Origin: a virus
Taxonomy: Duplodnaviria > Heunggongvirae > Uroviricota > Caudoviricetes
DNA: 5,529 bases
Reading direction: 5' to 3' (one strand)
IMG/VR virus record: IMGVR_UViG_2585427765_000008
This document shows, in pieces, positions 1-5,529 of this stretch. Each line of letters starts with the position of its first letter. The stretch's first letter is position 1. The notes under the pieces were generated by a model, which was given only the letters and a program-made list of their open reading frames with translations, had not been told where the DNA came from and searched no databases. A program made the translations under genes and the position numbers.

Positions 1-48
1 ACTGATATTTTCTGCCAGCGTCGGGCGCTGAAATTCACTGTCCGCCAT
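1..48 (-). CDS. Partial CDS: first 16 codons of the next baseplate gene (position of Mu gp47 / baseplate J-like), continuing beyond the window start
   Basis: ATG at 48-46 on the minus strand translates MADSEFQRPTLAENIS and stays open to the window edge. It overlaps the 3' end of the GP46-like gene by 14 bp in another frame. Identity is inferred only from Mu-type gene order; too short to recognise by sequence. Confidence 0.35.
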   Translation of the reverse strand, partial: MADSEFQRPTLAENIS

Positions 49-463
49 GCGTTATCGCACTCCACAGATCATCAAAAGAAATCATTACCGGTCCGTCACG
101 TCGCCAGAGAGTGATACTGTTACCCAGTTCATTAATCCCGGTGCGGCGGATATCCAGATCAATACGGGACACCACACCATCATCAATCATCCATTGCAGG
201 CATTCGCGGATATACCCCCTTACCGTCTGCACCAGCTGATTGGTCAGTTTGCTGCGCTGAAGCAGCCACAGTCGGGAGCCGTAACGGTCATTCTGTACCG
301 CAGGCCAGGTATCCCCCCACCATCCCATCGGGACGTCGGCATTGTCATCAGGCTCAGCCCGCCGCCAGGTGAACAGGGAAATCACCACGGCACGGGTCAG
401 CGGATCCAGCGGTGCGCTGGCACAGGTGCGTTTACCGTTCACCGTCAGCCACAGTTCCATCAT
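35..463 (-). CDS. Phage GP46-family baseplate protein (Mu gp46-like)
   Basis: 142-aa ORF (track) with a length and motifs (LFTWRR, GWWGD) that I recall as typical of the Mu gp46 family. GGAGG at 465-469 on the minus strand lies just upstream; spacing favours the second ATG (460-458) as the start. ATG 463-461 overlaps the TGA (462-460) of the upstream open frame in an ATGA arrangement. Confidence 0.8.
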   Translation of the reverse strand: MMELWLTVNGKRTCASAPLDPLTRAVVISLFTWRRAEPDDNADVPMGWWGDTWPAVQNDRYGSRLWLLQRSKLTNQLVQTVRGYIRECLQWMIDDGVVSRIDLDIRRTGINELGNSITLWRRDGPVMISFDDLWSAITHGGQ

Positions 464-624
464 GCCTCCATCGCTTTATCAGGTTTGTCGGTGTTACTGC
501 CCTGACCGTTCTCTCTGTGACGATGCCCGTTATAGGCAAGCCGCATCGCTGACATGGTGGTGCCGCCGGAGTCGCACAGGTCTTTCACCTGTCCTGTCAC
601 TTCCAGGTCCATTTCAAAACGAGC
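460..624 (-). other. Open frame in the -1 frame relative to the spike gene; probable displaced C-terminal apex of the central spike (or an independent small ORF of up to 51 codons)
   Basis: Hand translation of the minus strand: frame open from the stop at 627-625 to TGA 462-460, reading (A)RFEMDLEVTGQVKDLCDSGGTTMSAMRLAYNGHRHRENGQGSNTDKPDKAMEA. It contains an HxH motif followed by a Gly/Ser/Thr/Pro segment, resembling spike apex regions of gpV/gp45-type proteins. No convincing Shine-Dalgarno precedes its internal ATGs (612-610, 555-553). Its stop overlaps the GP46-like start. Confidence 0.5.
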
Positions 625-1007
625 TTAGGCGCATTGCGAAACGTGATCGTTTTACCTGCACCGTCCACCACGATCCCCGCCCGGGTCAGCGTCACGGACT
701 GCCCCTGATCGTCATAGACAGCCACCTCACCCGTCTGCAGCCCTTTCAGGCGGTAACGCCGATCCGACACCGTAACAACCACCGCATGAGAACGGTCACC
801 ATCCGGAAACAACACCACCGCTTCCGCACCGCTGTTTGCCCTTGCGGTAAAACCGTAAGGTTCAAGATGTTCAACCCCGGCTTTGGGTTCACCGGCAATC
901 AGGGACACATCCACGGTCTGACATTTCGTGGCGGCACTGATGCTTTTCACCACGGCCCGACCAATCAGCCCGAGGAGTTGTCGCTGTATGGTTTCAATCG
1001 CCCTCAT
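597..1007 (-). CDS. Baseplate central spike / assembly protein (Mu gp45, P2 gpV family), apparently truncated at 136 aa by a frameshift
   Basis: 136-aa ORF (track). The N-terminal part has an OB-fold-like gpV signature (GRAVV, PYGF, GAEAVVLFPDGDRSHAVVVTV), followed by short beta-strand-like repeats. Start ATG 1007-1005 overlaps the P-like stop (TGATG). AGGAGG lies about 10 nt upstream. Mu gp45 is about 197 aa as I recall, so 136 aa looks short. Confidence 0.75.
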   Translation of the reverse strand: MRAIETIQRQLLGLIGRAVVKSISAATKCQTVDVSLIAGEPKAGVEHLEPYGFTARANSGAEAVVLFPDGDRSHAVVVTVSDRRYRLKGLQTGEVAVYDDQGQSVTLTRAGIVVDGAGKTITFRNAPKLVLKWTWK

Positions 1008-2086
1008 CAGAACGGGTCCTCCTGTACTCTGGCTTTTTTCTTTTTCCGCGCGCCGGGATCTTCGGGTTCAGGCAGATAAGCATCAGGCGGGCCGACACGG
1101 ATTTCCGTCAGGGTGCCGTTCTGGTCCTGAGTAAACGTGACTTCCGAAACAAGCAGTTCGGTATTGTCGAAACCACAGACCGGATCAAAGACAATCACCC
1201 GCTGGTTGGGCTGCCACAGCGTACCGTTACCCTGTCGCCAGCCCTGCACCACATAGGTGGTTTCATCCGTCCGCGCCGCCCGTTGTCGGGCTTCAAAGTC
1301 AGCACGCGCAATACAGCCTGCCCCCGTGGCCTGCCCTGTCTGCCTGATATACATCGGACGGTAACGGGCAATAAATGCGTCCTCTGTGCGGGCCCGCAGC
1401 GCGGTGGTGGTGGCCTCACCGAAATCATCGTCGTTTCCGGCACGCTGCCCCGCCACCTGGTAAACAGAAAACCGCTCCCGGATACTCTTCTCCGTATCGC
1501 AGGAAAGGATGTTTTCCCCGAGTACTAGCGCGGTATGTGCCCGCGTTGAGCCAATACCGCCAATCACCAGCCTGCCGTGCGGGTCGTCGTAAGCCAGTGC
1601 CTGCTGCTGACCGAGTATTTTGTTGATCACCTCAATCACCGTTTCGCCGTGATCAGGCTGGACATCAGGAATAACGCCCGACGGCGCACCGTTGTTCACC
1701 ACCTCAATGCCGAAAGGCGCAGCAAGCGCCTGCGCAATCTGTACCAGCGATCGTCCGTTAAACTGTGTCGGTTCGGCTGCACAGTCAATCAGGTCAGCGG
1801 TCAGACTACGTCCGGCAATACCGGTGCTGACCGAACGGGCATCGTAACGAACGGGAGTCGCCTCCACCCAGCCGGTGATCACCAGCTCATCACCAATCAG
1901 CACTTCCACTTTTGAACCGTTTTTAATGCGCGGCTGAAGCGTGGTGATACCCTCATCTCCCGGCCACTGGCGGGTGATCTCCACACTGAAATCCCGCGCC
2001 AGCCGTTCAATACCGGCACCGATGCGCACCGATGTCCAGCCATTCCACTCCCGGCCATTTACCCGTAGCGTGACATTGTCGTTCAT
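1007..2086 (-). CDS. Baseplate hub protein (Mu P / gp44 family; phage late control D-like tail protein)
   Basis: 359-aa ORF (track). N-terminus MNDNVTLRVNGREWNGWTSVRIG matches the recalled start pattern of the Mu P family. Start ATG 2086-2084 overlaps the N-like stop TGA 2085-2083 (ATGA). Basic C-terminal tail ARKKKKARVQEDPF. Confidence 0.85.
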   Translation of the reverse strand: MNDNVTLRVNGREWNGWTSVRIGAGIERLARDFSVEITRQWPGDEGITTLQPRIKNGSKVEVLIGDELVITGWVEATPVRYDARSVSTGIAGRSLTADLIDCAAEPTQFNGRSLVQIAQALAAPFGIEVVNNGAPSGVIPDVQPDHGETVIEVINKILGQQQALAYDDPHGRLVIGGIGSTRAHTALVLGENILSCDTEKSIRERFSVYQVAGQRAGNDDDFGEATTTALRARTEDAFIARYRPMYIRQTGQATGAGCIARADFEARQRAARTDETTYVVQGWRQGNGTLWQPNQRVIVFDPVCGFDNTELLVSEVTFTQDQNGTLTEIRVGPPDAYLPEPEDPGARKKKKARVQEDPF

Positions 2087-3411
2087 TGCACTGGCACCTT
2101 CAGAGGGATCACCGGCACAAAGCCGGGATGCGTAATGGCATTACGCCGGATAATGTCCGCGTCACGCGCCGCGTTATCAAACCAGGTCGCCGCCAGCACC
2201 AGCGCGGGTAAAACCTCATCCGGCGTGCGCTGAATGATCCGAGCAGACTGTTCAAGGCGCGTGTTGATATCCGCATTCAGATCTGCTTTCACCCGGCGCA
2301 GCGCCAGAAACAGCGCATCACTGGTTGTACGGGACAACTCCTTATCAATTGCCGTATTCAGTGTGTCGCGAATGTCAGTCAGTTCTTCCCACGTCGGCAG
2401 GTCAACCGTGTTTTTCACCGCCAGTGCATTGTTCAGTGCCGGATGCGTGACGGAAGGCCAGCCAGTGCTCTGCGCAGGTGTTGTTGCCTGCCCCATTGCG
2501 GCATTCTGCATCACCGCGGAAGTTGTTGGCGCAGGCAATCGGGTAACGGCATAGGCCGCTTCGCTGATTGCAGTCGTACGAAGGGTGCTGGCAACCACGT
2601 TACGCTGCTGCGTCGCCGTGACGGTGGTTTTACTGTCCGTTTTCCAGACGCCGCGCGGTTGCAGATCGCTGCCAAGGCTGACACCAGAAAGCGTTTTGAT
2701 CATGGTGACCAGGTCGCTGGCGTTACCATAAAGGCGTTTCCCGGTACGCCACATTTTCTGCACCTGCTCAACGAGATTTTTGCCTGACGATGGCGGCGGC
2801 AGAAGTACCGAGATATCCCCCTGCAACAGCCTGGCGGCATCCGATACGGCAGAATCCACCACTTTCATCGCATCAGAAACATACCCCAGCATTGTGCTGA
2901 CATTACCGACGACGTCGTTCTGCACAAAATCCGCCACGCCATCGATACTGAAACCACTGAAGCTGTCAATGATGCAGTCATCCAGTGCAGAACAGGATGA
3001 CATCAGCGTCTGCGCCGTCGCCGCACCTGAAGTGGGGTAAGAGAGTTCTCCCGCTTCGACAAACTTCAGGTCAAAGCGGACAATACGCCCTTCACTCTTC
3101 GATGTGCTGACCCGAACTTCCCCGTCAACACAGACTTTCAGCTCACCGTAAGTCGGATGGACAAGCGTGCCGGGACCGGGTTTATTCAGCGCGTCAATCA
3201 GGCGATCGCGCTGGTCAAAGCAGTCATCTCCCACCACATAAGCTGTGATGGACGGGCGAAAAGTGATTTTCCCCAGGTCTTCGGTATAGGGTTTGTCGCG
3301 GTTCGGGTATTCGTGCGTTTCCACACGACGACCGGTTCCCGCACTTTCTTCTTCAACCTTAAACGGCACACCGCGAAATGACGCGTCCTGAAGTCTGTCT
3401 TTCCACGTCAT
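2083..3411 (-). CDS. DNA circularization protein N-like tail/baseplate protein (Mu gp43 family)
   Basis: Long minus-strand ORF containing the ASFRGVPF motif near the N-terminus, characteristic of the DNA-circularisation N-terminal domain family. Start chosen at ATG 3411-3409 (MTWKDRLQDASFRGVPF), preceded by GGAG at 3420-3417 with 5-nt spacing. The track's upstream ATGs (3453, 3426) lack a Shine-Dalgarno and would place the hairpin inside the coding sequence. Product about 442 aa. Confidence 0.85.
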   Translation of the reverse strand: MTWKDRLQDASFRGVPFKVEEESAGTGRRVETHEYPNRDKPYTEDLGKITFRPSITAYVVGDDCFDQRDRLIDALNKPGPGTLVHPTYGELKVCVDGEVRVSTSKSEGRIVRFDLKFVEAGELSYPTSGAATAQTLMSSCSALDDCIIDSFSGFSIDGVADFVQNDVVGNVSTMLGYVSDAMKVVDSAVSDAARLLQGDISVLLPPPSSGKNLVEQVQKMWRTGKRLYGNASDLVTMIKTLSGVSLGSDLQPRGVWKTDSKTTVTATQQRNVVASTLRTTAISEAAYAVTRLPAPTTSAVMQNAAMGQATTPAQSTGWPSVTHPALNNALAVKNTVDLPTWEELTDIRDTLNTAIDKELSRTTSDALFLALRRVKADLNADINTRLEQSARIIQRTPDEVLPALVLAATWFDNAARDADIIRRNAITHPGFVPVIPLKVPVQ

Positions 3412-3426
3412 ATAAACTCCGTACAT

Positions 3427-3448
3427 AAAAAATCCCACCGGAGTGGGA
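3427..3448 (-). terminator. Candidate intrinsic terminator or attenuator hairpin between the tape measure and N-like genes
   Basis: On the minus strand: stem TCCCAC (3448-3443), loop TCCG, stem GTGGGA (3438-3433), then TTTTTT (3432-3427) and AT. A perfect 6-bp stem with 4 G:C pairs followed by a U-tract, 21 nt downstream of the tape measure stop and upstream of the favoured N-like start. Confidence 0.35.
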
Positions 3449-3471
3449 CTCATTAACAGATTAATTTTTCA

Positions 3472-4386
3472 TTACCTGCCAAAGCGCGTATAGCCAACAT
3501 CATGGCTGACATCAAAACCGCTGGATCGCGTTTCCATAACCCGCATACCCGGAGGCGAATTCACAAAAGAGACCTTGATCTCACCATCAACTTTTGGCGC
3601 AGAAGCTTTGTTAATTATGAAGGGATTCGGGCCTGTGGCATCGGAGGCGTTGTTTGACTGAGCCGGATCCACCGCCGGATAAGGTGTGTATCCCCGCGCC
3701 GGTATTCCAGTCCCATAAGCATCATAAGCACCCGCGTCCCACTGCGCAGAGTTAATGGCATCGACCGTGTCACCGGAACTGTCGGTAAACCACTCAATAA
3801 TTGGCTTCAGCTTGTCCCACATATCCTGAAACCACTTAACAACCGGTCCCCAGTTATTGATCACCATCCCCAGCGGCGACCAGGCAAAAACTTTCTTAAG
3901 GAGTTCCCAGCCAGCCTCAAAATAAGGACCAATGGTTTCCCAGAGCTTCTTGAAATAAGGTCCGACAACATCCCAGTTAGTGATAATTAATCCCGCAGCC
4001 AGGGCTATCGCCGTCGCAATCATGCCAATCGGCGTCATCGACATGATCCTGCTGACAATGCTGATGGCACTGCCAACGCCCATCAATCCCAGTTTCAGAA
4101 TCGCAAGACCGGCAGCAAGCCCGACGACGCCGCGAATAACCCGGGGATTTTCATCCGCAAACTTCGTGAATTTTTCCCCTAACTCCCCCAGCCATTGCGT
4201 GATATTTTTGGCGTCACCAGAAAATGCGCCGCCAATAGCCGCAAGGCCGTTAGTTGCGGTCCCCGTCATTGCCTCCCACAGGTTGGACAGCGTTCCAAGC
4301 TGGGCCTGAACACGTTTATTCAGGCTGGCCTGTTTATTCATCTTCTGCTGGATCTGATCGTAGCCATCCTTTCCTTTATCGATTAG
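3472..4386 (-). pseudogene. Tail tape measure protein, 3' (C-terminal) fragment; 5' part separated by the IS insertion
   Basis: The 289-aa track ORF (3472-4341) has a long hydrophobic Gly/Ala/Ile-rich segment followed by Trp-rich repeats (WDVVGPYFKKLWE, TIGPYFEAGWE, NNWGPVVKWFQDMWDK), typical of tape measure C-terminal regions, and sits immediately upstream of the N-like gene as in Mu. The frame stays open upstream of ATG 4341 through 4386 and on into IS sequence (first in-frame stop 4524-4522) with no start codon, so the gene was cut at the IS boundary. Confidence 0.8.
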
Positions 4387-4440
4387 TGAACCGCCCCGGG
4401 AATCCTGGAGACTAAACTCCCTGAGAAAGAGGTAAACAGG

Positions 4441-4767
4441 ATGACTAAAAATACTCGTTTTTCCCCCGAAGTCCGTCAGAGAGCGATTCGTATGGTTCTG
4501 GAAAGTCAGGGCGAATATGACTCACAGTGGGCGGCAATTTGTTCCATTGCCCCAAAGATTGGCTGTACACCGGAGACTCTGCGTGTCTGGGTACGCCAGC
4601 ATGAGCGGGATACCGGAGGCGGTGATGGCGGGCTCACCACCGCTGAACGTCAGCGTCTGAAAGAGCTGGAACGTGAAAATCGTGAACTGCGCCGCAGTAA
4701 CGATATCCTTCGCCAGGCTTCCGCTTATTTTGCGAAGGCGGAGTTCGACCGCCTCTGGAAAAAATGA
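4441..4767 (+). CDS. IS3-family transposase OrfA (HTH DNA-binding, leucine-zipper protein)
   Basis: 108-aa ORF (track), [30 protein letters not shown]...[36 protein letters not shown]. It matches, from memory, OrfA of IS629/IS1203 almost residue for residue. GAGG lies 8 nt upstream of the ATG. Confidence 0.9.
4759..4767 (+). other. Putative -1 programmed ribosomal frameshift site for OrfAB fusion transposase
   Basis: A6 run (4759-4764) spanning the last two Lys codons of orfA, immediately before the orfA stop TGA (4765-4767), with the orfB ATG (4764-4766) in the -1 frame. IS3-family elements make their transposase by -1 slippage on A-rich heptamers in this overlap. Confidence 0.5.
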
Positions 4768-5529
4768 TGCCACTGCTGGATAAGCTGCGTGAGCAGTACG
4801 GGGTCGGACCGCTATGCAGCGAACTGCATATTGCCCCGTCAACGTATTACCACTGTCAGCAACAGCGACATCATCCGGATAAACGCAGTGCCCGTGCGCA
4901 GCGCGATGACTGGCTGAAGAAAGAGATACAGCGCGTATACGATGAAAATCATCAGGTGTACGGTGTGCGTAAAGTCTGGCGTCAGTTGTTACGGGAAGGT
5001 ATCAGAGTGGCCAGATGCACTGTGGCACGTCTCATGGCGGTTATGGGACTTGCCGGTGTTCTCCGGGGTAAAAAGGTCCGTACGACCATCAGCCGGAAAG
5101 CCGTTGCCGCAGGCGACCGCGTAAACCGTCAGTTCGTGGCAGAACGACCTGACCAGCTGTGGGTGGCTGATTTTACTTACGTCAGCACATGGCGGGGCTT
5201 CGTCTATGTGGCGTTCATCATTGATGTGTTTGCCGGATACATCGTGGGGTGGCGGGTCTCATCGTCTATGGAAACGACATTCGTGCTGGATGCTCTGGAG
5301 CAGGCGTTATGGGCCCGTCAACCGTCCGGCACAGTCCATCACAGTGATAAAGGTTCTCAGTATGTATCGCTGGCCTACACACAGCGGCTTAAGGAAGCCG
5401 GATTACTGGCATCAACAGGAAGTACTGGTGACTCGTATGACAACGCGATGGCGGAGAGCATCAATGGCCTTTACAAAGCGGAGGTAATACACCGTAAGAG
5501 CTGGAAAAACCGGACAGAAGTGGAGCTGG
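4764..5529 (+). CDS. IS3-family transposase OrfB (DDE integrase core), 3'-truncated by the window edge
   Basis: Hand translation from ATG 4764: [37 protein letters not shown]...[31 protein letters not shown]...[10 protein letters not shown]...[16 protein letters not shown], open to 5529. It is in the -1 frame relative to orfA. Absent from the ORF track, presumably because no stop codon falls inside the window. Confidence 0.9.

Follow-up and report, generated by a model that had tools for sequence, protein, structure and literature searches.

Why should a prophage gene for the central spike of the baseplate end after 136 codons when the rest of its coding sequence stands open in another frame? 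The gene lies in a window of 5,529 bases, which is the whole of contig JOSO01000094.1 from assembly GCA_000713745.1 of Escherichia coli 2-177-06_S3_C3; literature searches found no publication under the assembly accession or the strain name. The contig contains a section of the tail/baseplate module from an SfV-like prophage whose tail genes are of the Mu type. The closest complete genome is that of E. coli CFSAN064035 (L001), which contains a prophage 99.77% identical to bases 1-4388 of the window; nine mismatches and one gap separate the two. Among phages, the relatives are SfV and SfIV, which are serotype-converting phages of Shigella with 97% protein identity to the window in the spike; phiP27, Pantoea phage AH07, phages of Ralstonia and Bordetella, and Mu/D108 are more remote.

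Read along the minus strand, the window starts with an IS3-family element, followed by the 3′ half of a tape-measure gene, a gp43-type gene, a gp44/gpP-type hub gene, the spike gene, a gp46-family gene and the start of gp47. Of the insertion sequence (4387-5529, plus strand), which reaches the contig end, the left end and orfA are present along with the greater part of orfB. It cuts off the 5′ part of the tape-measure gene, so that the contig has a 3′ remnant at 3472-4386 on the minus strand that corresponds to approximately codons 307-611 of 611. The DNA-circulation or gp43-type gene occupies 2083-3453 on the minus strand and matches PF07157. Its longest ORF is 456 aa, compared to 442 aa, from a downstream start, in relatives and in the contig’s own annotation; this difference (window 3412-3453) is a matter of start-codon choice only. 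The baseplate hub gene (1007-2086, minus strand) is intact, matches PF21683, PF22255 and PF21929, and has a 359-aa counterpart in relatives. Its stop codon overlaps the start of the spike gene. On the other side of the spike gene is an intact baseplate wedge gene of the gp46 family (35-463, minus strand; PF07409 GP46, E = 6e-33), annotated as “phage GP46 family protein” in relatives. Only the first 34 nt of the gp47/baseplate-J gene, also on the minus strand, are present before the contig ends at window position 1.

According to the ORF list and its translation, the spike ORF spans 597-1007 on the minus strand and terminates at a TGA at 599-597. It consists of 128 native codons followed by eight out-of-frame codons (LVLKWTWK) before the stop. 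The −1 frame opens at 624, straight after an in-frame TAA at 627-625, and closes at a stop codon at 462-460. This displaced C-terminal segment (460-624, minus strand) comprises 54 codons plus the stop and translates as ARFEMDLEVTGQVKDLCDSGGTTMSAMRLAYNGHRHRENGQGSNTDKPDKAMEA. Its TGA and the ATG of the gp46 gene overlap as ATGA at 463-460. The two frames share a 28-nt overlap with a U-run, GUUUUG, inside it. This is the arrangement described in the initial annotation, which placed the end of the spike ORF at 136 aa and the ATGA overlap at the gp46-like start; all of its coordinates check out in the sequence.

The break is explained by a single missing base. The intact gene of CFSAN064035 is 549 nt long and encodes 182 aa, and pairwise DNA alignment of window positions 440-1020 to it gives one gap column. 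At codons 127-130 (Pro-Lys-Ala-Arg), CFSAN064035 reads CCT AAG GCT CGT, whereas the window reads CCT AAG CTC GT; other alleles have CCT AAA GCA at this site. One purine has thus been lost from a run of 2-3 purines in Lys codon 128 (624-625, minus strand), where there is no long homopolymer, and the retained G is window base 624. The sequence spanning the site is CCTAAGCTC with the deletion and would be CCTAAGGCTC or CCTAAAGCTC without it. It is the only indel in 4,389 bases aligned to the CFSAN064035 prophage. The initial annotation had argued from the frames that a once-continuous gene was split by a 1-nt indel, be it a true mutation or a sequencing error, and the lone gap relative to intact relatives bears this out. 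It had also estimated a repaired length of about 182 aa, which is exactly the length of the intact relatives, so that a first-pass reading of the frame structure predicted the intact protein length exactly. The site that it offered as an example, a run of T at 616-619, is not the right one, since the missing base belongs to codon 128 at window 624/625. Relatives differ at this codon, which encodes Lys, Arg or Glu and has several linked SNPs nearby, and the deletion falls exactly inside this small variable patch at codons 125-129 (window 622-632).

Both pieces belong to one and the same spike protein. The N-terminal piece matches the Pfam family PF06890 (Phage_Mu_Gp45) over residues 17-84, covering the full profile from 1 to 68, with E = 7.7e-25 and 87.1 bits (cut-off 24.1 bits). 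It also scores 52.5 bits against NCBIfam TIGR01644 (phage_P2_V), above the cut-off of 46.75 bits. These two matches uphold the original assignment to a gp45/gpV-like spike. The native part of the truncated ORF aligns with residues 1-128 of homologs that are intact at 182 aa. The 54-residue tail is a 100% match to residues 129-182 of SfV orf17, and S148G is its only difference from the CFSAN064035 protein of 182 aa; its reading frame is thus not open by chance. It also aligns with the C-terminal end of each of the nine intact relatives collected. On its own, the tail finds no match in Pfam, PHROGs or NCBIfam, and its identity is therefore taken from the intact homologs and from a profile search against the PDB. 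When a single sequence was searched against the PDB, the C-terminal part matched only weakly (3vto, E = 0.33). With a profile made from eight relatives, from which Mu and D108 were deliberately left out, the match to the cryo-EM chain of Mu gp45 (9ki1_V, 197 aa) extends over residues 13-194 with E = 1.7e-36, and the crystallised C-terminal domain of the Mu protein (3vto) is matched with E = 6.6e-09. In this profile match, the tail segment corresponds to approximately residues 144-194 of Mu gp45. When the two pieces are compared to Mu gp45, as the initial annotation had proposed, they cover adjacent N- and C-terminal segments.

The displaced segment includes the codons CAT CGT CAC (517-525, minus strand), which encode H162-R163-H164 of the intact protein, a candidate for the HxH motif that binds metal in the apex of the spike. 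H162 is invariant in an alignment of eight sequences, and an HxH motif is found in nine of nine relatives. The HIH motif of Mu/D108, however, sits one column away from the HxH of the window type in both automatic alignments. The earlier claim that an apex-like C-terminus with an HxH motif lies in the −1 frame thus stands as far as the presence of HRH at 525-517 is concerned; its correspondence to the motif of Mu is one column off, and the tail alone has no profile match. In the window, the C-terminal β-helix and the HxH apex are not contiguous with the N-terminal domain, as the HRH codons (525-517) lie in the −1 frame past the stop. The position of the gene is also that of a central spike, between a gp44/gpP-type hub gene and a gp46-type wedge gene with overlapping stops and starts, and the same order is seen in SfV, phiP27, D108, PY223 and AH07. 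The locus is a disrupted member, a pseudogene, of the Mu gp45/P2 gpV class of central baseplate spikes.

The closest known system is SfV orf17 (NP_599049.1), together with the 182-aa “phage baseplate assembly protein V” of SfV/SfIV-like E. coli prophages (for example WP_001201467.1), to which the protein identity is 96-99%. The order of hub gp44, spike, gp46 and gp47 is shared, including the same start/stop overlaps. The window differs in being one base short in codon 128, which gives 136 aa instead of 182. Mu/D108 gp45 (197 aa; PDB 9ki1 chain V, 3vto and 3vtn) is homologous over nearly its full length and likewise lies between gp44 and gp46. The Mu protein consists of an OB-fold, a β-helix and an apex that holds Fe and Ca (PMC11915804). 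The spike of the window type shares this architecture, and its HxH at the C-terminal end corresponds to Mu H183-I184-H185, as counted from the alignment. However, identity is only about 27% (the tblastn match to D108 extends over residues 2-176, with 27% identity), and the window-type spike is 15 residues shorter even when intact. In the alignment, the window copy is cut at the equivalent of approximately Mu R143. The iron-loaded spikes P2 gpV and phi92 gp138 (PDB 3qr7/3qr8 and 3pqh/3pqi) have an HxH iron site at their tips (PMC6116203) and belong to the same functional class; the N-terminal part of the window spike matches the TIGR01644 model. In published structures, the Mu, P2 and phi92 spikes are trimers that bind Fe at the apex, with Ca as well in Mu (PMC11915804, PMC6116203). 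Similarity to the solved P2 and phi92 chains is not significant even with the profile (E = 0.22-0.72), and kinship to these spikes is based on the family model and on Mu as an intermediate.

The intact form of the gene is widespread. The region was matched in 1,094 of 5,426 complete E. coli genomes, with at least 80% of it covered in 1,087, and up to three copies are found per genome. Every copy listed and every copy examined has one more base than the window. An intact single-frame gene is also present in phages SfV, SfIV, phiP27, AH07 and D108. The comparison with related genomes called for in the initial annotation therefore found homologs intact at 182 aa, none of which ends where the 136-aa ORF ends. 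When the 71-nt deletion junction was searched against the complete E. coli genomes, the best match was 97.2%. A product look-up across 153 billion gene positions returned the exact 136-aa product for only one contig, JOSO01000094.1, and no second contig with this product is on record.

The 50-aa ORF of the tail is also called separately on other public contigs. Ten of these (L011-L020) carry different lesions in an allele that is only 96% identical: single-base losses in CCCGGGCGGGG or in an A or CCC run, a 13-bp deletion and an N-gap. The lesions cluster at nt 321-335, 355 and 381-384 of the reference spike gene. One contig (L020) is affected at the same reference position as the window, but there, judged by the SNP pattern, a C was lost from a CCC run. 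In several of these assemblies, gp47 is split too. These lesions are independent events and in part resemble assembly noise. Many of the spike frameshifts on other contigs probably stem from faulty assembly and give rise to spurious pairs of 136-aa and 50-aa genes in databases.

The state of the prophage as a whole bears on how the lesion should be read. The alignment to the CFSAN064035 prophage ends at position 2713 of its sequence, within the tape-measure CDS (1794-3629). The junction between the insertion sequence and the tape-measure gene lies at about 4386-4389, where the left end of the element reads TGAACCGCCCCGGGAATCC. Its orfA (108 aa) matches NF033516 (transpos_IS3), orfB runs past the contig end, and its called genes match PF01527, PF13276 and PF00665. 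The element is 99.9% identical to copies on many plasmids annotated as IS3 family transposase, and the sequence at 4387-5529 presumably resembles IS629/IS1203. The tail module is defective because this element cuts the tape-measure gene. A look-up of the IS-truncated tape-measure product led to the same junction in contig JNQF01000092.1 of a sister assembly (GCA_000704005.1), which is identical to the window at 4,442 of 4,442 nt. The shared junction and the complete identity indicate that both assemblies are accurate and that the prophage is truly degraded. The locus thus combines a private lesion in an otherwise intact gene with an IS-truncated tape measure, as found in pseudogenes of degraded prophages. 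Since the prophage is already degraded, further decay is unsurprising, and since the insertion already disables it, the functional consequence of losing the spike is moot.

JNQF01000092.1 ends at window position 1079, inside gp44 and 72 nt short of the spike gene. The lesion is accordingly not visibly shared by the sister isolate, whose contig stops before the spike, and there is no second record of the 136-aa product. With its record confined to a single contig, the deletion is without independent replication. The contig itself ends 34 nt into gp47 and the sister contig inside gp44, and neither end shows a repeat or foreign sequence. One possible cause of the contig breaks is that the genome contains a second, related copy of the prophage, given that E. 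coli genomes carry the region in up to three places; such a copy would make consensus errors more likely.

Four SNPs are private to the contig in a comparison with 12 relatives. One is in gp45 at codon 16 (position 960), and three are in gp46 at codons 13, 95 and 120 (positions 422, 176 and 101, respectively). All four are synonymous, as expected for a real allele under selection and unlike a noisy consensus. Four further differences from the CFSAN064035 prophage represent the common state among relatives. Across the polymorphic cluster at 627-622, the contig follows the allele of the CFSAN064035 type apart from the deletion, and alleles are not mixed there. A chimeric consensus of two alleles was considered and rejected, as the common-state and the synonymous private SNPs speak against noise; the deletion itself may still be an artefact. 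The stretch from the tape-measure remnant through gp44, about 3.4 kb long, differs from the closest genome at only one position. SNP density thus increases at the start of gp45, which suggests a recombination boundary at that point.

The best explanation is that the mutation is real, and the locus probably represents a recent, strain-private inactivating frameshift in an already defective prophage. On this reading, one base has been lost from Lys codon 128 of the SfV orf17 orthologue, a homologue of Mu gp45 and P2 gpV. Translation then continues in the wrong frame for eight codons to a stop, giving a 136-aa product. This product keeps the OB-fold domain that docks to the hub and the initial stretch of the β-helix, but the last 54 residues are gone, including the HxH that forms the metal-loaded piercing tip in homologous spikes. 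By alignment, the truncation at about Mu R143 takes away the last part of the helix together with the entire apex, and the truncated protein would presumably be unable to form a working spike. The displaced tail has no further damage, which indicates that the lesion is young. The base is probably missing from the genome rather than from the assembly only; the lesion is an ordinary pseudogene mutation or possibly a base-calling error.

A sequencing or assembly artefact, by which an intact 182-aa gene exists in the genome and the base is missing only from the draft consensus, for example because reads of two related, co-resident prophages were collapsed at a locally polymorphic spot, is unlikely, although it has several observations on its side. 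Across 153 billion gene positions and 1,100 copies in complete genomes, the lesion is seen on a single draft contig, and the downstream frame is perfectly kept. Codon 128 lies where four linked polymorphic sites are clustered. The contig and its sister both end in phage genes at points with no visible repeat, which is compatible with a second copy of a region that occurs up to three times per E. coli genome, and independent frameshifts of the same gene occur in other public assemblies of low grade. Against this, the deletion is the sole indel in 4.4 kb and does not fall in a long homopolymer, and the two independent assemblies agree elsewhere at 4,442 of 4,442 bases. The private SNPs are synonymous in four of four cases, unlike noise, and the contig tracks the allele of the CFSAN064035 type across the 627-622 cluster with no sign of allele mixing. 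A real frameshift therefore remains the favoured reading.

The remaining readings are very improbable even when taken together. That a −1 ribosomal frameshift or transcriptional slippage within 600-624 joins the two frames as a programmed event borders on the negligible, despite the GUUUUG run in the 28-nt overlap and the intact downstream frame. No slippery heptamer of the form X XXY YYZ occurs in frame 0 anywhere in 597-1007, every relative examined, from more than 1,000 genomes and including functional phages, has the gene in a single frame, and the break is fully accounted for by the one base that is missing relative to them. Recoding was rejected on the strength of the in-frame relatives and the lack of a heptamer; the initial annotation had already ranked it as less likely on the latter ground, and the heptamer is indeed absent throughout the ORF. 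It is scarcely more credible that the gene is functionally split, with the 136-aa fragment and a separately initiated 50-aa peptide forming a two-piece spike. An ATG at 612-610 does open a 50-aa ORF in the frame of the tail that gene callers annotate, but it is internal Met133 of the intact protein, and the 20 nt upstream of it (GCGCCTAAGCTCGTTTTGAA) hold no Shine-Dalgarno-like sequence. Moreover, the alignment to Mu gp45 places the break inside a continuous β-helix region, no relative has conserved the arrangement, and the tape-measure gene is broken regardless. There is likewise only a very slim chance that the break is real and tolerated, with spontaneous −1 slippage at a low level at GUUUUG or separate initiation at ATG 612 yielding sufficient complete or two-piece spike to serve some function, for example in a tailocin-like particle that another prophage complements. 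If true, such a tolerated break would be a natural split of a β-helical spike.

A young frameshift in a decaying prophage is thus the preferred account of this locus. The gene is well known, here as a disrupted copy in a common type of E. coli prophage, and the case represents no new biology. Its importance is slight beyond the correction of annotation. The database entries KEO04893.1 (136 aa) and KEO04892.1 (50 aa) need to be merged into one frameshifted pseudogene of the SfV orf17/Mu gp45 type, and they provide a clean example of how the loss of a single base yields two spurious short database proteins. The prophage itself, with a tape-measure gene cut by an insertion sequence and a frameshifted spike gene, should be scored as defective.
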